Source: a virus
Virus genome (UHGV): UHGV-1662908
Strand: one strand, 5' to 3'
Length of the DNA: 18,670 nucleotides
In this document: positions 1-16,447 of the stretch, piece after piece
Numbering within the stretch: the first letter of the stretch is position 1
Layout: each line of letters begins with the position of its first letter
Program-made: the position numbers and the translations under genes
The notes under the pieces: generated by a model
The model's database searches: none
Seen by the model: the letters and a program-made list of their open reading frames with translations, nothing else
Told to the model about the DNA's origin: nothing

Positions 1-2
1 CG

Positions 3-407
3 TTCCTGGCCCCCGTAGCCGCTGCTGCTGCCGTTGGGGCGGGTATGGCGCAGGTTTCCGCTATCAGGTCCGCACGTGAACAGGGTGGTCAGTTATCCGC
101 GGGACAGGCTTCCACCATCGCTGAACGCGGTAAACCGGAAGTTATCATGCCCGCTGGGGCATCGCGTGTGCGCACCGCGCAGCAGATGAAAGAAATTATG
201 GGGCAAAACGGGTCTTCTTCCGGTCCGTCTAATGTTACTATTGTGAACAACACTAGTTCTCAAATTGGCAACGTATCCACAGAGCAGGATGATGAAGGCC
301 GTTTGCGTATCATCATCGAAGAGCAAGTGGCGGCATCTTTGCAGAACAGCAACAGTAAGATTAGCAAGGCCCGCAAGGCCACAAGAAATGCGCCGGGGTT
401 CAAATAA
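3..407 (+). CDS. C-terminal part of a virion structural protein continuing from upstream of the window (possibly tape measure or other tail protein); 5'-truncated
   Basis: Frame is open from window position 3 with no upstream stop (ORF track lists 45..407). Stop overlaps the next start (TAATG), coupling it to the tail gene cluster. No diagnostic motif recognised. Confidence 0.45.
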   Translation, partial: FLAPVAAAAAVGAGMAQVSAIRSAREQGGQLSAGQASTIAERGKPEVIMPAGASRVRTAQQMKEIMGQNGSSSGPSNVTIVNNTSSQIGNVSTEQDDEGRLRIIIEEQVAASLQNSNSKISKARKATRNAPGFK

Positions 408-907
408 TGAGCGACTTATATTTCCCACGTAGCCTTAAGCCGGTGGTATCGAAAGGCTACTCAATGACCAGACGCAACAACGTCTGGAGCGTTGATTTAG
501 CCGGTGGCGGTGTGCGTCAGGGCCGCGACACGTATTACGACGTGTTCCCGATAAGCGTAACCCTGATTACATCAGCACTAGGGCGGCAGGCGTTTCTGTC
601 GTTCCTTGAGAAAGTCGATGGTGGTGCTTCAAGTTTCTGGATGGCGCATGACTTCGGCATGGGTATCGAGGATTATCAGGTAACTATCACGTCAACCATC
701 GCAGAGTCCACAGAAGATGGCATTAACTGGACGATTACTTTCACGGCAACCGCTGAGAAATCGCCGTTCCAGAACCTTGAGAATCAGTGCCTTGTTAACA
801 ATCTGCCCGATTTGTATGGTTGCTATGGTGACAGTCTGAGAGGTTTCCTTAAAGCCTACGGAACTGCACAATCAACGTTTCCACGAATTTGGGACCCGAT
901 GCAATGA
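407..907 (+). CDS. hypothetical minor tail / tail-tip protein (166 aa)
   Basis: ORF track 407..907 with ATG start; coupled to both neighbours by overlapping stop/start codons; position between structural protein end and tail-tip genes. Confidence 0.55.
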   Translation: MSDLYFPRSLKPVVSKGYSMTRRNNVWSVDLAGGGVRQGRDTYYDVFPISVTLITSALGRQAFLSFLEKVDGGASSFWMAHDFGMGIEDYQVTITSTIAESTEDGINWTITFTATAEKSPFQNLENQCLVNNLPDLYGCYGDSLRGFLKAYGTAQSTFPRIWDPMQ

Positions 908-1419
908 GCCAGGAATCAGTAGAAGCAGCCTATCGCCGTAAGCTGGCCTCAAATCCCGACGGCGAGATGGACTACATCACGTTGCAAATCAGCCATCCGT
1001 TGCTGTCAAAGACGTATTATCTTGTGCGCGGGCTACAGGAACTTACGGCGACACTGGAGACGGGCGAAACAATCACGTTCGAGCCAACCCCGATGGAAGC
1101 GGCGGGAGCCGCTAACAACAGTGATATGGACCAGACGACGACGTTCACTTTACCGGATATTCTCAATCAACTGGACGACGAGATGGATAAAATCCCGATG
1201 AGTAATACTGAGTTGCCGAAGTTTGTATTCCGCCGTTATGTCAGCACCGACCTGTCTTACCCAGCGGATGGTCCAGTCGCGTACGAGTTACAGGCCATCA
1301 ACCAGGAGAAAGGTGAATTCTCCGCGGATGTCGGTACACCTATGCTGAACCAACGAAGCACTGGTATACTGATGACACCTAAAGAAATACCGTTATTACG
1401 CGGCCTGTTGACCACATGA
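904..1419 (+). CDS. hypothetical minor tail protein (~171 aa)
   Basis: ORF track 889..1419 begins at a TTG; the first in-frame ATG (MSQESVEAAY...) is at 904 and overlaps the upstream stop as ATGA, so 904 is the likelier start. Confidence 0.5.
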   Translation: MSQESVEAAYRRKLASNPDGEMDYITLQISHPLLSKTYYLVRGLQELTATLETGETITFEPTPMEAAGAANNSDMDQTTTFTLPDILNQLDDEMDKIPMSNTELPKFVFRRYVSTDLSYPADGPVAYELQAINQEKGEFSADVGTPMLNQRSTGILMTPKEIPLLRGLLTT

Positions 1420-1781
1420 ATATTAACGACTACACGGGCATACCTTACGACTTTCGCAAACGTAATTGCTGGCATCACGTGCGCATTGTCCGCGCGGATG
1501 CCGGGTTAGAAACCCCGGCGTTCGACGTTACAAGCCCAACGGCAATTAACGACGCGTTTGACGAAGGCCATCGCAACACGAAGGGACTTACAAAAATTGA
1601 TAAGCCTGAAAACTTCTGTGCGGTGCTTATGGGGTATCGCCGCGGGGGTCGTATCGTGTGGCACGCAGGAGTTTACTTCGACGGGATGGTGAGCCATTGC
1701 GAGCTTGCGTCCCGGCAGGTACGGCTTGACAGGCTGGCAGACCTCAGAGACACGTACACGGAGATTGAATTTTGGCGATAA
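1416..1781 (+). CDS. small tail-associated protein, possibly NlpC/P60-like peptidase (lambda gpK-like)
   Basis: ORF track 1416..1781; ATGA overlap with upstream gene; Cys- and His-containing segments (NCWHHV ... WHAGVYFDGMVSHCE) resemble the NlpC/P60 catalytic Cys and His-containing strand. Pattern-based only. Confidence 0.4.
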   Translation: MNINDYTGIPYDFRKRNCWHHVRIVRADAGLETPAFDVTSPTAINDAFDEGHRNTKGLTKIDKPENFCAVLMGYRRGGRIVWHAGVYFDGMVSHCELASRQVRLDRLADLRDTYTEIEFWR

Positions 1782-4327
1782 TCCTGCACTACACGCGAAA
1801 CGCAGATGGCGCTTTCGACCGCACAAAACACGTCGGGATGCCGATGGAGTTTGTCGTTAACCGTATCCCCGACGGCGTGCCGGTGCGCGTCTACCTCGGC
1901 GAGATTGGTGACGATACCGACGTAACTGACGACTTCGACGCGCTTAAAGACGAAGACGCGGTGTACCACATTATTGAGGGTGCTGGTGGTGGTATAGGTA
2001 ACGCTATTGGGAAGGTGTTTGGTTTTATCCTTAAGCCAATCGCTAAGTTGTTTGGTCTTAACCGGACACCTAATGCCGACTACACGGCGACTAACAATCA
2101 GACAACGTCACCGAACAACAGCCTTACCGACCGTTCCAACAAGCCGCGCCCTTACGAGCGCTCTTATGACATATGCGGGACTGTACAGACAATTCCTAAT
2201 GACCTGATGCAGACGTACAAGGCGTTCAACTCCACGGGCGCTTTGCTGGAGTATTCGTACTACGACGCAGGGCGCGGGCATCTGCATATTGAGGCCAATG
2301 GCGTCACAGAGGGTGACACCTTGATAAGCGACATCACGGGTTCCTCTGTTGCCGTGTATGCGCCGTATACTTCCCCTAACAACACCACATCCCCTCAACT
2401 ACAAATCGGCGACGTCATTGACCAGAAACTCTATGTGACATACTCCAATGATGACGTCGACGGCATTGTACTGAAAGCGCCAAACGACATCGGAGCTAAC
2501 CCAACCTCCGGCGGCACTGCCAAACGTATCTCAACCACCGGCTACATCTATGACCCGTCGGGCGACTCTGCTTTTTCTGAGTTTCTTAGTGTCGGTGATG
2601 TCGCGGTGCTGAGCAACTTTGACGTACGCGATGTCACTAACCTGAACGGCTCATTTGAGGTTTTATATGTCGACGACTTTGAGGTTCGGTTGTACGTCGG
2701 GAATATAGGTAACTGGGGCAATCTTAGTAATGGGCAGACTTACGCCCTGACAGAGCGTTCGGATACGTTTATAGGCCCGAGCAACACGTACGATGTGTCC
2801 CTGACCGACTGGTATTACATGGTGCGCGGAGAAGTTGACCGAGTGCTCGCCAACGTTGCTGGTCAGAACGGCCTCTACAAATACGATGGCGGCTATAACC
2901 GCACCAGCGTAACCGTAGAACTCCAGTACCAGATGATTGATTCCCGGCGCAACCCGTTGGGTGATATTTACACGGTACAGGCTACAATTACGGGCAACAA
3001 TACCGACTACGTCGGCACGTCTATCTACGGTCAACTGCCGACCGCGTCCCGTTTCCGCGCCCGCATGCGCCGTATAACGAATTTCGATAAGGACTATGAC
3101 GGTACAGTAAGCGACGAGATAACGTTCATCAACCTGTACGGGCAGTCCCTGGACACAACCCCACACTACGGCAACAGAACTACCGTACATTGCGCCCGTA
3201 AACAGACGCCACGTGCCGCAAGTATCGACAACCCGGAACTGCGCATGATCGCAACCGAGATGTGTTACAAATACCGGGGAAATGGGGTATTTGATACAGT
3301 AATGACGCCGAATACGCAGGCGGTACAATCGCTAATCAGACTGGCGCGTGACCCGGCGGTGGGCAATCTGGAACTCACAACGGCAAACATGGATAAGTTA
3401 CTATCCGTGCAGGAAGAAATTGAGTCCTATTTCGGAAGTGAATTGGCGGGGCAGTTCTGCTACACATTCGACGACTACGACACAACTATGCAGGACATCG
3501 TTCAGACTATAGCTGAAGCCGTGTTCTGTACCGCGTACCGTAAAGGCGCGGATATTATGCTGCGATTCGACCGCCCAGTCGCTGGGCCAGAGATGGTGTT
3601 CACCCACCGCAGCAAAACTACCGGGACGGAGAAATGGTCCCGCACGTTCAACGATTCGACAACCTACGATAGTCTGTCGTTCTCGTACATCGACCCGGAT
3701 ACTAACGTACAGGAAACGATTTATATCCCGGAAGAACTTGGGGTAAACACCGAAGAATACGAATCGAAGGGGGTGCGCAACTACCAGCAAGCGTACTGGC
3801 TTGCGTGGCGTCGCTACCAACGCAACGCGTTAAGTAAAGTTGTCGTAGAGTTCGAAGCTACCGAAGAGGGGGCACTCGCTACACCGGGCGGCGTAATCAG
3901 TGTGGTTAAAGGCTCGCGTATCGCGCCACAGGACGGCTATGTTGTTGCCGTTAATGGGCTTACGCTGACGCTGTCTCAACCTGTTACGTTTACTCCGGGG
4001 GATGACCACTCCATCATCCTCAAGAAGCGCGACGGCTCGGTGCAGAGTATCTCTGTTATCAAAGGAAGTCACGACCGTGAGGTGGTTATGCTCTCCGCGC
4101 CGGAGGAGGCAATCTACACAGGGAATAGTGCACTAAAAACTGAGTTTTCATTCGGCAACGAAGCAAGGCATAATGCTCAGAAGATAGTTGTTTCCTCAAT
4201 CGACCCGGGCGACGACCGCACGGTCAGGATTACTGGTTACAACTATGACGATGGATTCTATAAATACGACGGCGTCGCGCCATACGGCAGCGGTTTCTCC
4301 GACGGGTACAGCAACGGTTTTAATTAA
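1772..4327 (+). CDS. large tail-tip / host-specificity-like structural protein (851 aa in track; start uncertain)
   Basis: Long ORF 1772..4327 directly after the small tail proteins and before the tail fiber. Track start is a TTG overlapping the upstream stop; first ATGs are at about 1838 and 1844 (MPMEF). A Gly-rich hydrophobic stretch lies near the N-terminus (GGGIGNAIGKVFGFILKPIAKLFG). Confidence 0.6.
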   Translation: MAIILHYTRNADGAFDRTKHVGMPMEFVVNRIPDGVPVRVYLGEIGDDTDVTDDFDALKDEDAVYHIIEGAGGGIGNAIGKVFGFILKPIAKLFGLNRTPNADYTATNNQTTSPNNSLTDRSNKPRPYERSYDICGTVQTIPNDLMQTYKAFNSTGALLEYSYYDAGRGHLHIEANGVTEGDTLISDITGSSVAVYAPYTSPNNTTSPQLQIGDVIDQKLYVTYSNDDVDGIVLKAPNDIGANPTSGGTAKRISTTGYIYDPSGDSAFSEFLSVGDVAVLSNFDVRDVTNLNGSFEVLYVDDFEVRLYVGNIGNWGNLSNGQTYALTERSDTFIGPSNTYDVSLTDWYYMVRGEVDRVLANVAGQNGLYKYDGGYNRTSVTVELQYQMIDSRRNPLGDIYTVQATITGNNTDYVGTSIYGQLPTASRFRARMRRITNFDKDYDGTVSDEITFINLYGQSLDTTPHYGNRTTVHCARKQTPRAASIDNPELRMIATEMCYKYRGNGVFDTVMTPNTQAVQSLIRLARDPAVGNLELTTANMDKLLSVQEEIESYFGSELAGQFCYTFDDYDTTMQDIVQTIAEAVFCTAYRKGADIMLRFDRPVAGPEMVFTHRSKTTGTEKWSRTFNDSTTYDSLSFSYIDPDTNVQETIYIPEELGVNTEEYESKGVRNYQQAYWLAWRRYQRNALSKVVVEFEATEEGALATPGGVISVVKGSRIAPQDGYVVAVNGLTLTLSQPVTFTPGDDHSIILKKRDGSVQSISVIKGSHDREVVMLSAPEEAIYTGNSALKTEFSFGNEARHNAQKIVVSSIDPGDDRTVRITGYNYDDGFYKYDGVAPYGSGFSDGYSNGFN

Positions 4328-4339
4328 AGAGGACTCTAT

Positions 4340-7213
4340 ATGTCAAGCGGATGCGGTGACGTTTTAAGCCTGGCGGATTTACAGACCGCCAAGAAACACC
4401 AGATTTTTGAGGCAGAGGTCATTACCGGTAAATCCGGTGGGGTTGCTGGGGGTGCTGACATTGACGAAGCAACGAACGCTGTAACAGGGCAGGTGCAAAA
4501 AACATTACCAGCTGTTCTTGATGATATTGCGTTGAATGTAGTGCCTTTTAGCAAACAATATTCGGACCTTGCTGCCGCGCAGGCAGATATAGCTAATATC
4601 CCAGTAAATTCCTATACGTATATCAGAGATTCGTCTGGCAGCGCATTGGCGCTGGAATACCAGAACGTAGCCGGGGTCTTGACAGCCACAGGCCGAAAAA
4701 TGCCTTCACGGGCATCAATGGTCATTGGTTCTGTAGATTCGTGGGTTAATAACAATCTTTACTCATTTGATTCATTTTCATCGCCAAACGAAAACTTGGT
4801 ATCAATGAGCGTAGCCGCAGTAGATACGATTGCGTACCGAGAGGCCTACTCCGCTTTATTATCTACAGTTGCAGCGGGCGACATTATCACTGTCCGTTAT
4901 AGATACAGCGGAACCGGAGGCGCCCCAACCATTGGATTAAAAACATCGCTGAACGGCACATTTGTGAGTAATCAGCCAACGCTGACCTCTTCAAATGACT
5001 GGCAGGAAGTGCAGCTTACCGCTACCGCAGCTACCGCAACGCTCCTGGCTATCGGGGTGAACACAAGGCTTGCAACCACTGTTCAGTTATCGATTATCGC
5101 CTACGCATCGAAGAAAAATGCTATTACCACGGCAATTCTTAACTCACTGGATAGCATTTCCAGTTTAAATGGGAAGGTGCGTATTGGTTCTGTGGATTCG
5201 TGGGTTAATAATACCGGATATCCATTTTCCACATTTTCCCAGGTCAATAACAACCGCGTGAACTACGCTAATGCTTCAGGCGTATACTCTGAAATGTACG
5301 CCAACGCTTCCGTTCCTTCAGGCGAGAAGGTAACGCTCAGCTACTCGCTGGATATTACTTCAGGTCGTTTATTCGCTCGACTTGCCAACGGTAGCAACTG
5401 GACCAGCGACGAAGTCCAATTGACTAATGGTGATGCACGGCAGACTGTTATCCTGACAGCTACGGCAGACACTAAGCAGATTAAAATCTACTCAAAAGCA
5501 GAAGTTTCATCAGGGAGTATATTTGCAGAGGTAAACTTCGGACAGAAAAACTCACTGACCGAACAGATTGACGCGCTATATTCTTCAATCGCTTCAGCCA
5601 ATGCTGTTCTTGCTATTTTGTCACAAGATTCTACCTTCGACTCTTTCGTTAACAGTTCACCTTACACCTATACTCTTTCCGATGCCGGAACCGCGTATAA
5701 GCAATTGATGAACACAATCACCCCAGTATCTGGCGTTTCAACCGTCAAGATGATGTATAAAATTGCATCATCTAATGCGGCACTGAAGATTCAGAGTCGT
5801 AATGGTAATGCGTGGGGGGCAAATGAAAAGGCTCTCATTGCAGACGGTAATTATCATGAAGTGGACCTCGCATTAGCTTCGGGGCAGGTTTTCTCTGGGT
5901 GGGGTGTGTACTCAGCAGCAAAATCAGGTGGGTATCAAGCCGATGTGACGATGATTCCTGTTTCTGCCGATGGGGTATTTTTCACCCCAGCCACAGCTAT
6001 TTTGTACGGACTCATGACGTCCGCAGATTCACTCAACACCAGAGTTACCGCACTGGAAAACGGGCAGGTCACTAACCAGAATACTGACGTTATTTTCCCG
6101 GCATATTTTTATGCTGTAGATGGTCGTCCATTGCGTTTTTATGGTGCCAATATGGTCAGTGGTGCTCGCCCGTGGCGAAATAATACTGACGTTGTGCTGT
6201 CCAGTCATGGGTATGAGGGAAAGCCAGTATTACTTAAAAATGTTGTGCCTGACGCAACGATAATGCCGTCAGAAATCAACGGACCAACGCTGAACGTTAA
6301 TGCTCGTGCTGATGGTTCTGGGGATGTATTTCGTAAGAAAGCTGCGTTCACCAAACTGGCGGCGACTCAGACCGGTAACGTGAAAGTCGCTACTATTATG
6401 GACTCACTTGGTGAACGTTGCGTTCCTTGGTTGTACTTCGCCATCAATGCCACTGGTGCTGCTTACGTAGGTGCTGGTTCCCGAACCACTCGTGGTATAA
6501 CGGACGAGGGAGGTTACACTCTGCCAAATACACCGTCAGCAGGCATTCCTTTTGACGGTCGTGGTGGCTGGACGACGTTCGACTACATCGGGAAGACGCA
6601 GAAGACGAACTTCTCGCAGCCATTCCTGCGTGACGCTACGAGCACAGATTTCTCTGCTTATCCGCAGTATTGCTTCGATAAAGCCTACTCCGGGCAGAGC
6701 TATGCAGATAACCCTAATCTGGAGGGGTATCACATTTTTGATGTGACGGCATGGATGGCAGCGGCTGGCGTGAGCGCATCAGACAAACTGGTTGTGGTTA
6801 TCCAACTGGGATACAATGATTTGTATTATAACTACACCCCGCAGCAGACCGCCGACGCGCAGGAGTTCATGATTGCGAAATTCCGTGAGAAAATAGCGGA
6901 TTCCCGTTTCGTTATTTCTCACCAGGCATTTGGCTGGTCGGGAGCAAGTGCACCCAAGAATTGGCCTGACTTTGCAAAATGGATAACGGAGAAGGTCAGG
7001 AAGTTCGACAATCGCCTTGGCGAGAAAATAATTGTGGCGCCTGCATGGGCGCAGATGAGCTACAAATACGGAATGAACGAAACTATCACAACAACCAGTG
7101 ATACTGGTGTCCAGACTGTATCGTTACCTGATGACGTCCATCCCGGAGAGCTTGGCGGGGCGCAGTGGGGTGACGCTCTGGTTGCTCCTGTTCTGGCGGC
7201 GTGGAGTTTATAA
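4340..7213 (+). CDS. tail fiber / tailspike protein with tandem internal repeat domains and C-terminal SGNH (GDSL-like) esterase domain
   Basis: ORF track 4340..7213; ATG preceded by AAAGAGGA RBS. Repeated segments GSVDSWVNN(N/T)..(F)S.FS at aa ~129 and ~282, with a weaker third copy at ~aa 430. C-terminal ~280 aa carry SGNH-like blocks: IMDSLGE (block I-like), LGYND (block III GxND), DDVHPGE (block V DxxH). Confidence 0.7.
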   Translation: MSSGCGDVLSLADLQTAKKHQIFEAEVITGKSGGVAGGADIDEATNAVTGQVQKTLPAVLDDIALNVVPFSKQYSDLAAAQADIANIPVNSYTYIRDSSGSALALEYQNVAGVLTATGRKMPSRASMVIGSVDSWVNNNLYSFDSFSSPNENLVSMSVAAVDTIAYREAYSALLSTVAAGDIITVRYRYSGTGGAPTIGLKTSLNGTFVSNQPTLTSSNDWQEVQLTATAATATLLAIGVNTRLATTVQLSIIAYASKKNAITTAILNSLDSISSLNGKVRIGSVDSWVNNTGYPFSTFSQVNNNRVNYANASGVYSEMYANASVPSGEKVTLSYSLDITSGRLFARLANGSNWTSDEVQLTNGDARQTVILTATADTKQIKIYSKAEVSSGSIFAEVNFGQKNSLTEQIDALYSSIASANAVLAILSQDSTFDSFVNSSPYTYTLSDAGTAYKQLMNTITPVSGVSTVKMMYKIASSNAALKIQSRNGNAWGANEKALIADGNYHEVDLALASGQVFSGWGVYSAAKSGGYQADVTMIPVSADGVFFTPATAILYGLMTSADSLNTRVTALENGQVTNQNTDVIFPAYFYAVDGRPLRFYGANMVSGARPWRNNTDVVLSSHGYEGKPVLLKNVVPDATIMPSEINGPTLNVNARADGSGDVFRKKAAFTKLAATQTGNVKVATIMDSLGERCVPWLYFAINATGAAYVGAGSRTTRGITDEGGYTLPNTPSAGIPFDGRGGWTTFDYIGKTQKTNFSQPFLRDATSTDFSAYPQYCFDKAYSGQSYADNPNLEGYHIFDVTAWMAAAGVSASDKLVVVIQLGYNDLYYNYTPQQTADAQEFMIAKFREKIADSRFVISHQAFGWSGASAPKNWPDFAKWITEKVRKFDNRLGEKIIVAPAWAQMSYKYGMNETITTTSDTGVQTVSLPDDVHPGELGGAQWGDALVAPVLAAWSL
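4724..4753 (+). repeat. direct repeat copy 1 inside tail fiber gene (~29 bp, near-identical to copy at ~5183)
   Basis: Encodes IGSVDSWVNN; read as attggttctgtagattcgtgggttaataa versus attggttctgtggattcgtgggttaataa in copy 2 (about 28/29 identical). Coordinates derived from codon positions. Confidence 0.6.
5183..5212 (+). repeat. direct repeat copy 2 inside tail fiber gene
   Basis: Second occurrence of the same ~29-bp segment, ~459 bp downstream of copy 1, encoding the same IGSVDSWVNN peptide. Confidence 0.6.
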
Positions 7214-7377: not shown

Positions 7378-7559
7378 TTCTCACCTTCGCTTTTCTTGAA
7401 GCTGCGCTTTATGTCCGGCAGCGTGTAACATCGTGACTTTTCGTATTTACCGTTCGAGCTTACCAAAACAAAGCTGTTGCCGTCTTTTGATATGTACTCG
7501 ATGGTGAAAGTATTGAATGTGCGTATGCTGTATATTTCATCACCAACATTAAGTTTCAT
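7374..7559 (-). CDS. hypothetical protein (61 aa)
   Basis: ORF track 7374..7559; start overlaps the helicase stop; last in the minus-strand operon. Confidence 0.45.
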   Translation of the reverse strand: MKLNVGDEIYSIRTFNTFTIEYISKDGNSFVLVSSNGKYEKSRCYTLPDIKRSFKKSEGEK

Positions 7560-8980
7560 TTCTTACCTCGTCTCTTCATGTAATTAAGCAACTCTTCCTG
7601 TACCGATTTTTTCTCGTCCGTACGCGCGGCAACAACCTCGTCCAGCGTGTCTTTAGCGACGATGTGGTAGAGGAACACCGGGCGCTCGTGTCCTGCCTGT
7701 TTCTGACGGACTGGACCTATACGCTCAACGACCTGCAAATAGTGCTCAAGGTTCCATCCCTGACTTATGAACGCCAGATGATGCCCGCCGTCCTGTAAAT
7801 TTAAACCATGACCGGCTGACGCAGGGTGGACGCATAGTATTTCGATTTCACCACGGTTCCACGCTTCCATCTGCTTATTACCCTTAGCGCCTTTTGCAAA
7901 CGCCTGTGCCTGCGGGAAACGTTTCAGGATGCGTTCCAGTTCGTGCTTGAACTGATAAGCCACAAGCAGCGGCGCGCCCTGTAACTCCTCGACAATTGAC
8001 TCAAGCGCGTCAAGTTTCGTATCGTGCACTTTCTCCCAGTCTTTGGTTGCTTCGCCGTCTGGCCCTGACACATATACGGCACCGGAGGCAATCTGCAAAC
8101 ACTTCGACGTCTTCGCCGCAGCGTTAGCGGCTTCAACCTCCCCGCTCTCCAGTTCCGCGAATAACTTCTCCTCCATATCGATGTACGCCTGACGTGCTTT
8201 CTTCGGCAGGTCGATTTCCACTGGCACGATAACAGGCGCTTCACACCCGAACCACTCGGCAGCGTCAATCGTGAGACTGATGTCCTTCATCTTCTGGTGA
8301 ATTTCGTTATCCGCCCCCGGGCGCGCATGATACTCTCGCGCCATAGCGGACTTACCCTTCTGGACCGAATTAAACCAGCGGTCGGTGAACGCGGTGTATG
8401 AAGAACCCAGTCGCTCGCCAGCGTCAATAAACCAGTTCTGCCCCCACAAGTCCTTCAGGCCGTTTGGTGATGGCGTACCTGTCAGGTTGATAAAACGCTT
8501 AACCTTACCGAATGCCACTTTGCTAAGCGCCTTTGCCCGCTTGCTTCCGCCGGAACGGCTGCGGAATGATTTAAGTTTCGTGCTTTCATCGGCAACGATA
8601 ACCGTAAAAGGCCAGTCGTCTTTGCCGTAGTAGTCAATCAGCCATTCGATAACTTCATAGTTCGTGCACACCACGTTAGCGTATGACTCCAGCGCCGCGA
8701 TGCGGCGCTTCTCCGAACCCGTGGCATCGACGACACTCAGGCATGGGAATCGCCATTTCTCTTGTTCTGCTGGCCATGTGCCGGACGCAACGCGCAGCGG
8801 AGCTAGTATTAACACGCGGTCGTCATCGTTAAGTTGGCCGTTGCGGAACAGTCGGTTTAATGCCCACAGTACGCTGCCAGTCTTCCCGGCACCCATGCTT
8901 GCCCATATGTTGCAGCGATTGTGCCGCAACATAAACGAAGTCATGAGCTTTTGGTACTCGCGCCTTTGAAACTTAGACAT
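7556..8980 (-). CDS. SNF2/DEAD-like superfamily 2 helicase (~474 aa)
   Basis: Track ORF 7556..9298, but its first ~106 codons overlap the upstream gene and look non-protein-like; likely start is the internal ATG (MSKFQRREYQ) at 8980. Motifs: Walker A GAGKTGS, DExx box VIVADEST, SNF2-type motif III LTGTPSPN. Confidence 0.8.
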   Translation of the reverse strand: MSKFQRREYQKLMTSFMLRHNRCNIWASMGAGKTGSVLWALNRLFRNGQLNDDDRVLILAPLRVASGTWPAEQEKWRFPCLSVVDATGSEKRRIAALESYANVVCTNYEVIEWLIDYYGKDDWPFTVIVADESTKLKSFRSRSGGSKRAKALSKVAFGKVKRFINLTGTPSPNGLKDLWGQNWFIDAGERLGSSYTAFTDRWFNSVQKGKSAMAREYHARPGADNEIHQKMKDISLTIDAAEWFGCEAPVIVPVEIDLPKKARQAYIDMEEKLFAELESGEVEAANAAAKTSKCLQIASGAVYVSGPDGEATKDWEKVHDTKLDALESIVEELQGAPLLVAYQFKHELERILKRFPQAQAFAKGAKGNKQMEAWNRGEIEILCVHPASAGHGLNLQDGGHHLAFISQGWNLEHYLQVVERIGPVRQKQAGHERPVFLYHIVAKDTLDEVVAARTDEKKSVQEELLNYMKRRGKK

Positions 8981-9656
8981 GATTAGCCTCGTAAACTGCT
9001 TTTGCGAGCCCACGCGGAGTAAGGCTGCGGATTGTTTTTGTTCTGGCGCTCTTTCCGCCGAGTTTAGCCCAACCAGGGTTATCTCCGCTGCCCACGGCAA
9101 CCTCGGCAACGTTAGGCATAACAAACCCATTTCCGGCCCACAGGCACGTCTTTTTAACATATGCATCTCGCGCCGGGATAACATCCGGGAACATTGGATG
9201 CGTGTCGTCTTCGGGTAAATAGCCGCCGTATTCGTACGGATTGAACGCGTAGTCAGGCTTACGCCATAAAGACGAAAGAACGCTAACCGGGTTCTCAATC
9301 ATATACGGTACGTTGTACTTTTTAGCCAGACGCGCAGCCACTTTGCATGTAATCACGGCCTCTACCTGAAACGTTGGGTTCCTTCTCCGCTTCGTTTCGA
9401 AATGGGCCGCGCCGCTAACGGCTAAATCTGTGCATGGGGGGAACGCGAAAATAATATCCGGCGCAACGTCGAAGTCGAATTTATTATCAATCCACGCGTT
9501 TATATAGTGGATATTTTCATGTTCAACTTTTGCACCCAATCGAGCGTAGTCTCCGTGGTCGGCGCCGTCGTAGTTGAAACAATAGCAAGTATGGCCCGCT
9601 TCCGCCCACGGTTGGGCCATAATGCCCGAACCGTCAAACAATGACCAGACAATCAT
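8973..9656 (-). CDS. SAM-dependent DNA (cytosine-5)-methyltransferase-like protein (227 aa, short)
   Basis: ORF track 8973..9656. Motif I-like SLFDGSG (FxGxG), motif IV-like FPPC with candidate catalytic Cys, motif VI-like IENP. Shorter than typical C5-MTases, so the target-recognition region may be minimal or the function different. Confidence 0.5.
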   Translation of the reverse strand: MIVWSLFDGSGIMAQPWAEAGHTCYCFNYDGADHGDYARLGAKVEHENIHYINAWIDNKFDFDVAPDIIFAFPPCTDLAVSGAAHFETKRRRNPTFQVEAVITCKVAARLAKKYNVPYMIENPVSVLSSLWRKPDYAFNPYEYGGYLPEDDTHPMFPDVIPARDAYVKKTCLWAGNGFVMPNVAEVAVGSGDNPGWAKLGGKSARTKTIRSLTPRGLAKAVYEANHV

Positions 9657-14382: not shown

Positions 14383-15684
14383 TTATTCTAAATCTTCTTC
14401 ACTAACCTGATTCCACTCAGGCCGTTTGTCGTCTGCCGTTGCGACGCATGGCGCGCCTGGCTTACGAGTAACTTTCGTTTCCAGTTCGGCCCACATCCTG
14501 GCATACGCGCCTTTTAACACTTTTTCCGCTTCCGTTGGTGACATAACAGATTTCTTTGTTAGCAAATCCATGTCTACGTTATGGCGCGCTGCTAGTTCTT
14601 CGACCCATTTTTCATCACTCCAGCTACGATTACCCGGACGACCTTCAACCAGCTTATACCCCGGCACTTTCTTACCGGAATGCAAAGCGGCGGCCATAGC
14701 TTTCTCAACCTTGTCGATGTGCTGGCGCAACAACGGCAACTTCTCGTACTCAGCTACGAGTTGCTCTGGTGTCAGTTCCAGTGCAAAGTCGTCCTCCAGT
14801 TCTTCTGCCAGTACTGCGTTAACCGTCTTTGTACGCACGGCGCATTGTTCAGAGAACCGACACCACTGGCAGCCATCGACCGACGGCCTGAAGTCCGACG
14901 CTTTCAGGTTCTTCTTGCCGCGGAAATATGCATCAAGCGCCAACAGTGCACGTTTCCGTGCGAACTTAGCGAACAGTTCCAGACCTTCAACCGAGATGTC
15001 CCACTCCGACGCCCCACCAGCGTACGGTTGGAAGATTACCAGACGAACAGTTGTTATGTTATAACGTCTCTTGAGACGGCGATAAACACCGAGAGCGTAA
15101 AGCATAAGCTGTTTGTTTTCTTTCGCTTCGACACGATGTCGTCCTGTTTTCAGGTCGCCAATAATGAGCATGTGCTCGTCGGTGTTTGCCATCTCCTGTA
15201 CGGCAACAAGGTCAGAAGTTCCGAATGTCTGTAGTTCTTCTTGCCGTCCGTTAGGGCTATGAATGTAGCCAGGATGCAATACCTCAGTAAGATTGACGCA
15301 CATTTCCAGCTTGGCGTAAGTAGCCACGTCGATAATAGCTTTGCAGTAATCGGTGTACTTACGCACCTGCTCAATCATGTCAGCCGTAATCAGTACCGCG
15401 CCTTTCATCGGGCTGATTAGCGCCTTAATCTGGCCTTTGCCTTCATCCAGCACGTAAGCGCCAACTTCACGCCCTAACGGCAATGCAGTGCCACGGATAT
15501 AGGCGTTTAGATGGACCTCCGCTATGGTGTGCATGGCTGTGCCTAATACCGCAGCTTTACCGGACGTGTTAGGAATATCTTTCTCACAGGCCAGTGATGC
15601 AGCACAGCTTAGCCACTTTTTAGCGCCTGACGGTGACAGTAAGGCGTGCACATCGTTATTGCCGCCACGTTCTTTAAGAATCAT
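14383..15684 (-). CDS. PD-(D/E)xK nuclease of the DUF2800 / Cas4-RecB-like type (433 aa)
   Basis: ORF track 14383..15684. N-terminal HALLSPSGAKKWLSCAAS; IIGDLKTG...QLMLYALG matches a D..K...Q..Y nuclease motif; one N-terminal Cys plus a C-terminal CQWCRFSEQC cluster is consistent with a Cas4-like Fe-S site. Confidence 0.6.
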   Translation of the reverse strand: MILKERGGNNDVHALLSPSGAKKWLSCAASLACEKDIPNTSGKAAVLGTAMHTIAEVHLNAYIRGTALPLGREVGAYVLDEGKGQIKALISPMKGAVLITADMIEQVRKYTDYCKAIIDVATYAKLEMCVNLTEVLHPGYIHSPNGRQEELQTFGTSDLVAVQEMANTDEHMLIIGDLKTGRHRVEAKENKQLMLYALGVYRRLKRRYNITTVRLVIFQPYAGGASEWDISVEGLELFAKFARKRALLALDAYFRGKKNLKASDFRPSVDGCQWCRFSEQCAVRTKTVNAVLAEELEDDFALELTPEQLVAEYEKLPLLRQHIDKVEKAMAAALHSGKKVPGYKLVEGRPGNRSWSDEKWVEELAARHNVDMDLLTKKSVMSPTEAEKVLKGAYARMWAELETKVTRKPGAPCVATADDKRPEWNQVSEEDLE

Positions 15685-16178
15685 TTCTCAGCTCCGTTAA
15701 CTGTAAACCCATATTTAATCTCGGCTTGCCTACGAGCCTTAGCCGCGTTCTCTAACTTATCGTAAGCCCCTAAATAAATCGGCCTGCCGTCTACATAAAT
15801 TCTAGCGACCCACTTACCGTAGCGTTTATGAAACCCAACACCTTTAACCCCTGAAGTATTGTCGGTCCGTATGTTTGTGCCGTGTGCGATACTTCCCCGA
15901 CGCATTTTTATAAGATTTTCTATTCTGTTATCAGTTCTATCTTTATTTTTATGACGAATTACTTCCCCGGGCGCTATCACCCCGTTAAACATCTCCCAAA
16001 CTACGTGGTGGATAAGTTTAGTAGTCCCGTTAAAACGTAGTATTTTAAATTCACTCCCGTCGTTGTCCTCCCTCGTACTGCCAGCTTCTTGCCCTATTTT
16101 TACAGATTTTGACGGACTTATTTTCCAAAATAATTTACCGGTATCAGGGTCGTAGTCAAAAACTTCATGCCAGTTCAT
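15681..16178 (-). CDS. free-standing HNH homing endonuclease with C-terminal AP2-like DNA-binding domain
   Basis: ORF track 15681..16193; likely start is the ATG (MNWHEV) at 16178, overlapping the upstream stop (ATGA). HNH motif HHVVWEMFNG...IRHKNKDRTDNRIENL; AP2-like SGVKGVGFHKRYGKWVARIYVDGRPIYLGAYDKLENAAKARRQAEIKYG. Confidence 0.7.
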   Translation of the reverse strand: MNWHEVFDYDPDTGKLFWKISPSKSVKIGQEAGSTREDNDGSEFKILRFNGTTKLIHHVVWEMFNGVIAPGEVIRHKNKDRTDNRIENLIKMRRGSIAHGTNIRTDNTSGVKGVGFHKRYGKWVARIYVDGRPIYLGAYDKLENAAKARRQAEIKYGFTVNGAEK

Positions 16179-16447
16179 ACCCTGCTCTCCCACTGGTCAA
16201 TTAAATGTCGTGTCTTATGTTCGCAGTGCATAGCCCAGCTATACATCGACTCGAAGACATAAAAGTCAGGCTTGACGAACGTCGTGCGCTTAATCTGAGA
16301 CACGTGACGGCCTATATCTTTAGGCCATGGTACTTTGCCTAAGTACGCCATCTCTTCCATCTGGTGAGCACCGGACGGCGCACGTAACAGCCATAGCGCC
16401 TCTGTGGTATCCCGCCTGTCTACGGCGCGGTAGAGTTGGTAAATCAT
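16175..16447 (-). CDS. hypothetical protein (90 aa)
   Basis: ORF track 16175..16447; GAGGG RBS ~8 nt upstream of the ATG; stop overlaps the HNH-AP2 start. Confidence 0.5.
   Translation of the reverse strand: MIYQLYRAVDRRDTTEALWLLRAPSGAHQMEEMAYLGKVPWPKDIGRHVSQIKRTTFVKPDFYVFESMYSWAMHCEHKTRHLIDQWESRV

Follow-up and report, generated by a model that had tools for sequence, protein, structure and literature searches.

A probable Kagunavirus tailspike carrying a Klebsiella-type cassette of repeated modules and a predicted SGNH esterase

An 18,670-nucleotide (nt) stretch of viral DNA (UHGV virus genome UHGV-1662908; hereafter the window, with positions counted from its first letter) was analyzed with respect to a gene of 957 amino acids (aa) at 4340..7213. 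The gene probably encodes the receptor-binding tailspike of a Kagunavirus, in which the anchor of the genus is followed by a Klebsiella-type cassette of repeated modules and a predicted deacetylating SGNH esterase. Kagunavirus genomes (Guernseyvirinae siphophages, e.g. vB_EcoS_fPoEco01 and K1G) matched the window at ~90% nt identity across 65-74% of its 18.7 kb. The 957-aa open reading frame (ORF) follows directly on an 851-aa tail protein ORF ending at 4327, the slot in which related genomes have their annotated tailspike (K5-lyase-like in fPoEco01, an endosialidase in K1G). An N-terminal tailspike anchor in this slot marks the product as a component of the virion adsorption apparatus, and the retained anchor together with synteny with the tail and replication genes marks it as a Kagunavirus tailspike; the receptor-binding role suggested by a sequence-only reading of the window is supported by the same anchor and slot. 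An identical protein (P0004) was already public, is named 'tail spike' in the nr database and occurs on eight or more metagenome contigs, the longest of ~43.6 kb; several measure ~43.5 kb and are therefore near-complete phage genomes. The gene and the borders of its backbone and cassette parts are as follows.

4340..7213, forward strand: tailspike / receptor-binding protein coding sequence, ATG start, 957 aa
4329..4333, forward strand: Shine-Dalgarno sequence GAGGA, read in the sequence 6 nt 5' of the ATG
4340..4515, forward strand: Kagunavirus-specific N-terminal anchor, aa 1 to ~59, belonging to the phage backbone (fPoEco01 backbone homology over 1-4515, 87%)
4516..4567, forward strand: interval containing the left recombination junction; Kagunavirus homology stops at 4515 and homology to the Klebsiella prophage locus L004 starts at 4568
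4547..4723, forward strand: shared linker, aa ~70-128 (SKQYxxLAxAQADIANIP...TGRKMPS), with PHROGs 9750, 19652 and 14987 matching aa 25/58-127
7205..7213, forward strand: right cassette junction, at the stop codon; L004 homology stops at 7205 and the Kagunavirus backbone is back at 7208

The anchor was matched by PHROG 29731 ('tail spike protein'; aa 1-71, E=1.2e-30), and by tblastn aa 1-68/85, and nothing further, were common to hundreds of Guernseyvirinae, with 84-88% aa identity in the anchor; its genus-specific part is put at about the first 60-75 residues. The fibre gene of L004 was homologous over 4568-7205 and the fPoEco01 backbone over 1-4515 and again from 7208, so the cassette takes up ~2.7 kb, from aa ~59-77 through to the stop codon. 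The left junction falls in a linker common to several PHROG families, which occurs in many receptor-binding proteins with otherwise unlike bodies and in the consensus of relatives bearing different anchors. Across the tailspike cassette (4001-6500) guanine plus cytosine content was 0.465-0.485, lower than the 0.52-0.54 of the tail and helicase genes on either side, which fits a recent gain from a different gene pool.

In a large protein collection the cassette was 79-91% identical in aa sequence to fibres of K. pneumoniae, K. variicola, K. quasipneumoniae and a few E. coli/Shigella genomes, and these relatives carried at least five different N-terminal anchors at total lengths of 932-1237 aa. 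A search of 50,697 phage records located the body in only two Klebsiella phages (one Mydovirus, one P2-like; 73-76% aa identity), and no other record combined it with a Kagunavirus backbone; only 3 of 5,426 complete E. coli genomes held the cassette. As judged from these searches, a Klebsiella-prophage esterase cassette on a virulent-type Kagunavirus backbone is a specific feature of this phage. Two of the loci recovered had features of their own. In Klebsiella phage vB_Kpn_K45PH128C2 (OY978796.1; L001 6001-8670) an 890-aa cassette homolog is covered by ~10 small annotated coding features that bear names like 'GP30.8 protein' or 'exonuclease' and of which several are marked as partial and/or pseudogene, and the deposited annotation seems to misfit the sequence there. 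In K. pneumoniae CP141987.1 (L011 4754-5339) the gene of a 495-aa protein with an RVT_1 reverse-transcriptase domain was found ~400 nt downstream of the three-module fibre gene P0003.

Behind the linker the cassette begins with three modules.

4724..5182, forward strand: module M1, aa 129-281 (self-comparison, hhalign, common alignment pattern)
5183..5641, forward strand: module M2, aa 282-434 (self-comparison, hhalign, common alignment pattern)
5642..6055, forward strand: module M3, aa 435-572, a diverged third copy with a short predicted C-terminal helix SLNTRVTALENG (profiles, common alignment pattern)

The sequence-only reading had proposed related segments of ~150 aa from aa 129 and 282, and these were recovered with high significance: M1 against M2 gave a Smith-Waterman score of 139 (shuffled mean 34.9, z=16.5) and an hhalign probability of 98.2% (E=5e-14), compared with E=0.28-0.77 for unrelated control segments. 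A weaker third segment, which it had put near aa 430, corresponds to M3. By direct comparison M3 was weak (z=3.3-3.7; hhalign 62.9%, E=7e-5 against M2 and 1.5%, E=0.033 against M1). The M2 and M3 profiles both matched the single modules of distant relatives significantly, e.g. P0145 523-655 with independent E-values (iE) of 1.9e-11 and 7e-13, and the three modules of the window aligned with 15 modules of relatives on one pattern; M3 is taken as a real third module on the strength of this transitivity and common alignment pattern. Among close relatives the mean pairwise identity was 73% in M1, 78% in M2, 80% in M3, 84% in the beta-sandwich and 89% in the SGNH domain described below, M1 being the most variable region. 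The higher variability of the modules fits a role in specificity, and they may act as spacers or sugar-binding units. One library representative, P0163 (1,108 aa), has six tandem ~138-aa repeats that each matched the M2 profile weakly (iE ~1e-4). It was not taken as a member of the module family, as it carries the unrelated Pfam domains GEVED, MACPF_D2 and DUF7809; the match could reflect a very remote kinship with the module fold or be a compositional artefact.

The remainder of the protein consists of a beta-sandwich and a C-terminal enzyme domain, with the following features.

6056..6394, forward strand: beta-sandwich, aa 573-685 (~113 aa), before the catalytic domain (strands E17-E115 of the modelled segment)
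6395..7210, forward strand: SGNH hydrolase (acetyl-esterase-like) domain, aa 686-957, ~272 aa (profiles, predicted structure, conserved residues)
6404..6406, forward strand: S689 codon, predicted nucleophile, block I (MDSLG, a GDSL variant); invariant in alignments A2 and A3, aligned with the GDS serine of 5B5S
6476-6478, forward strand: G713 codon, other candidate for the block II glycine; invariant in A2 and A3
6566..6568, forward strand: G743 codon (DGRGGW), candidate block II oxyanion glycine; aligned with EGHSGW of the CE3 esterase 5B5S
6815..6817, forward strand: N826 codon, block III (LGYND, aa 823-827); invariant in A2 and A3, aligned with LGTND of 5B5S and 2WAO
7130..7141, forward strand: D931-D-V-H934 codons, block V DxxH, predicted catalytic acid and base; invariant in A2, at least 90% conserved in A3

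Alignment A2 comprised 19 sequences, down to 20% identity, and A3 comprised 32. The positions invariant in A2 (D688, S689, G713, P761, F800, N826, D827, D931, H934) contain the SGNH signature S689, N826, D931 and H934, with G713 as a candidate for its glycine; G743 was invariant in close relatives and Serratia homologs. A1, a shallow alignment restricted to close relatives, gave a structure model that was discarded (mean predicted local distance difference test score, pLDDT, 54.7). The C-terminal model from the deeper A3 had a pLDDT of 89.6 and a predicted template-modelling (TM) score of 0.91, and showed the three-layer alpha/beta/alpha fold with a five-stranded parallel sheet that, with the block I serine, the block III GxND asparagine and block V DxxH, is diagnostic of the SGNH superfamily. 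The SGNH blocks noticed in the sequence-only reading thus lie where it had put them (IMDSLGE at aa 686, LGYND at aa 823, DDVHPGE at aa 931), and its checks on fold and Ser/Asp/His triad came out in its favor, with S689, D931 and H934 invariant in A2. In Foldseek comparison to the PDB, CE2, CE3 and acetyl-xylan esterases and sialate O-acetylesterases were matched at probability 1.00, as well as the phage proteins 9D84 and 9LNA. CE2 esterases aligned over 403-433 columns spanning both domains, so that the model places the beta-sandwich and SGNH domain in a CE2-like two-domain arrangement; in a viral structure library, other phage tail proteins shared this unit (query TM-score <=0.66, ~400 columns).

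The profile search against SGNH/GDSL models proposed in the sequence-only reading succeeded with the family profile, which aligned blocks I-III to 5B5S, an acetyl esterase of family CE3 (E=4.6e-11), and to the esterase 2WAO of family CE2 (E=8e-5), and failed with the single sequence, which stayed below the Pfam thresholds given below and found nothing meaningful in the PDB. A word-indexed homolog search with the C-terminal domain returned close relatives and Serratia proteins at 48%, and nothing else. A profile-seeded search returned almost solely close relatives, the only new ones being P0181-P0184 (78-79%). An exhaustive HMMER scan of 1.84 billion representatives yielded only 50 related clusters, the distant ones bearing canonical GDSL, GTND and DxVHP blocks.

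Several results weigh against the interpretation given above, and the alternatives were considered together with them. A PDB search with the module profile (A4) gave no significant match (best E=0.28), and no module had a significant Pfam match, one of 18 members giving a sub-threshold hit to Golvesin_C (E=8.9e-4). By these comparisons the modules constitute an unannotated family, with neither Pfam nor PDB counterpart. For the DNA repeat that marks two of the module starts, the relevant features are as follows.

4724..4752, forward strand: 29-nt direct repeat, copy 1, at the start of M1, with the exact core GATTCGTGGGTTAATAA at 4736-4752
5183..5211, forward strand: 29-nt direct repeat, copy 2, at the start of M2, with the exact core GATTCGTGGGTTAATAA at 5195-5211

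The ~29-bp repeat reported in the sequence-only reading was found as described, its copies 28/29 identical and 459 nt (153 codons) apart; the repetition reaches well beyond this short match, to 56 nt at 77% in the DNA and over the full modules in protein self-comparison. When the codons of the gene were shuffled, the longest repeat, allowing no more than one mismatch, averaged 13.1 nt (maximum 15). Identity in the DNA exceeded that expected from aa conservation only modestly (same codon at 7/9 identical residues in the repeat vs 16/43 elsewhere, P=0.016; P=0.13 in L004), so that much of it is accounted for by the conserved peptide IGSVDSWVNN, and nothing in the window gene itself pointed to recent recombination. 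The codon test was too weak to support gene conversion between the two module starts in this lineage, a possibility that was considered.

On these grounds the repeat could be a footprint of the conserved peptide with no role of its own, copy changes in relatives being rare, neutral and without effect on host range; we regard this as possible, though clearly the less probable account. In its favor, an extra M1-type module was present in only 6 of 120 relatives, each exceeding counterparts that share its N-terminus by exactly 153 aa, and none of the 120 relatives listed had fewer modules. The form of the gains, however, speaks for a part played by the repeat. The three-copy gene of L003 differed from the two-copy gene of L004 by one 459-nt insertion, with the 2,478 nt downstream 100% identical, and the duplicate copies in L003 were themselves 100% identical over ~470 nt. 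The hybrid junction in the three-module relative P0001 puts the crossover within GATTCGTGGGTTAATAA, the exact 17-nt core of the window repeat, and that of P0003 lies a few codons downstream, in TATCCATTT, and therefore marks an independent duplication; both duplications are recent. P0005-7 bear an older duplicate diverged to ~70%, and distant relatives have three or four modules; the expanded forms have been retained and are therefore at least tolerated on functional fibres. Copy number has thus been gained in relatives by unequal crossover at microhomology at the module start. Of the expansion and contraction anticipated in the sequence-only reading, the former is borne out in relatives, with junctions at or beside the repeat, and the latter was seen in none of those listed.

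For the enzyme domain, NCBIfam gave no match to the whole protein or any segment, and the single-sequence Pfam scores were below the gathering thresholds (PF00657, 23.3 vs 23.6 bits; PF13472, 22.9 vs 32.9). As the fold and motifs are present, and with some relatives at 87-90% identity carrying a precomputed PF13472 match, the low scores are read as a limit of single-sequence sensitivity. In this clade block I has Met in place of the leading Gly (MDS); distant relatives carry GDS. Furthermore, gp63.1 of E. coli phage G7C (tailspike, PDB 4QNL), an SGNH esterase that strips acetyl groups from the host O-antigen and leaves its chain intact, resembles the window enzyme at the level of fold and not of sequence homology, and the validated SGNH fibres of Klebsiella prophages, 164_08-KL2 and 174_38-KL55 (PLoS Biol 2026, PMC13123978), are both non-homologous to the enzyme domain, 164_08 sharing the linker only. 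The enzyme clade is nearest to CE3/CE2 and stands apart in sequence from the validated Klebsiella examples and gp63.1.

If the domain is an esterase, it could be directed at an acetyl group other than that of capsule or O-antigen, e.g. peptidoglycan O-acetyl (Ape-like) or outer-membrane lipids, and aid penetration rather than recognition. This is considered unlikely, since its nearest relatives by profile and fold are the carbohydrate acetyl-esterases CE3 and CE2, the domain lies at the distal tip in a slot filled by capsule-degrading enzymes in other Kagunaviruses, and the experimental precedents are directed at O-antigen or capsule. Also unlikely is an inactive, lectin-like SGNH domain on an adhesin that recognizes sugar and leaves it unmodified. 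The departure of MDSLG from the GDSLG consensus and the low Pfam scores would suit it, but the deviating glycine position is not a catalytic residue, other tested phage SGNH spikes are active, and the serine, the block III asparagine and the block V aspartate and histidine stayed invariant to 20% identity while their surroundings diverged, which indicates selection for catalysis. That the domain is an acetyltransferase (like OatA, PatB or the OafB periplasmic domain) adding acetyl to the host surface is very improbable.

The favored interpretation, a receptor-binding tailspike with a deacetylating esterase, can be put as a mechanism. The genus-specific anchor (aa 1 to ~60-75) would fix the presumably trimeric tailspike to the tail, and recombination in the widely shared linker would have brought in the ~2.7-kb distal cassette from among the tail fibres of Klebsiella-type prophages. 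This cassette presents three homologous ~150-residue modules with short predicted helices between them, then the beta-sandwich and SGNH domain; the modules, whose fold and role are presumed, would serve as spacer or sugar-binding units. In the predicted active site S689 would be the nucleophile, H934 and D931 the base and acid, and N826 with a glycine the oxyanion hole. From fold similarity and the literature we infer removal of O-acetyl groups from a host polysaccharide, capsular or O-antigen, with the chain left uncut, as by gp63.1; deacetylation would let the virion bind, release and move toward the membrane. Module number would shift by unequal crossover at the conserved module start (IGSVDSWVNN / GATTCGTGGGTTAATAA). 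A bolder version, which we consider doubtful, would make the M modules an undescribed polysaccharide-binding family resembling carbohydrate-binding modules, tuned by crossover as an 'accordion' that adapts reach or avidity to the kind or thickness of capsule; a Kagunavirus would have captured the device for a host with a Klebsiella-like acetylated surface polysaccharide.

Elsewhere in the window, the mechanical ORF list gave a 580-aa ORF with a TTG start at 7556-9298 (reverse strand), where identical contigs have a 474-aa SNF2-type helicase at 7556-8980 whose 5' end is overlapped by a 227-aa ORF; the 580-aa reading is probably spurious. The 227-aa ORF (8973-9656, reverse strand), just downstream of the helicase gene, had no Pfam match; fPoEco01 has a 65-aa ORF in its place, and backbone homology in the compared stretch stops at 8988. 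Comparison of the two genomes points to 8973-9656 as a second variable slot, in the replication module. At 15681-16193 (reverse strand) a 170-aa ORF matched HNH_3 (E=6e-13) and, sub-threshold, AP2. It sits between a DUF2800/PD-(D/E)XK nuclease gene and downstream small genes, where fPoEco01 has a 57-aa ORF only, and resembles an inserted, free-standing homing endonuclease.

Esterase receptor-binding proteins are a recognized class, 'capsule surface remodellers', and have recently been seen as a widespread alternative to capsule depolymerases, chiefly in Klebsiella prophages. The current picture of phage esterase spike action is unchanged by the present findings. The transfer of a cassette to the backbone of a virulent-type E. 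coli siphophage at a defined linker junction offers a concrete example for host-range engineering and for prediction of tropism from sequence, the copy gains (exact 459-nt units, two independent junctions) offer a simple, testable route to change of fibre length, and the repeated module, a domain family without annotation, deserves structure determination.

The Klebsiella prophages surveyed in PMC13123978 are the population holding the 79-91% identical relatives of the cassette, and the same role, deacetylation of surface polysaccharide, is proposed for their SGNH fibres as for the window spike. Assays with p-nitrophenyl acetate back esterase activity of the Moo19/B2 spikes and of two Klebsiella prophage fibres (PMC13123978, PMC11654681). 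None of the diagnostic peptide motifs of the window was present in the sequence tables or supplements of PMC13123978. The linker shared with 164_08 extends over aa 26-127 (45% identity, E=1e-20), with nothing similar beyond; the body of 164_08 lacks M modules and has a GQS-type block. The window cassette also differs in standing on a virulent-type Kagunavirus backbone, whereas the Klebsiella SGNH fibres are in prophages. Likeness to the spikes of Shigella phages Moo19 and B2 (PDB 9D84) and to SFP21A Gp09 (PDB 9LNA) is at the level of fold only (12-15% identity), in other architectures. The CE3/CE2 enzymes (Talaromyces TcAE206, 5B5S; Clostridium thermocellum, 2VPT and 2WAO) have only 13-16% sequence identity to the window enzyme and GDS in block I where the window has MDS; they are free, secreted or cellulosomal and act on acetylated xylan or glucomannan, whereas the window enzyme is part of a virion fibre. 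With the K1G endosialidase and the fPoEco01 K5-lyase-like spike the window shares the slot, the flanking genes and the anchor (~87% aa identity over aa 1-70), but the bodies of those spikes are capsule-cutting depolymerases, whereas that of the window is a predicted esterase cassette.

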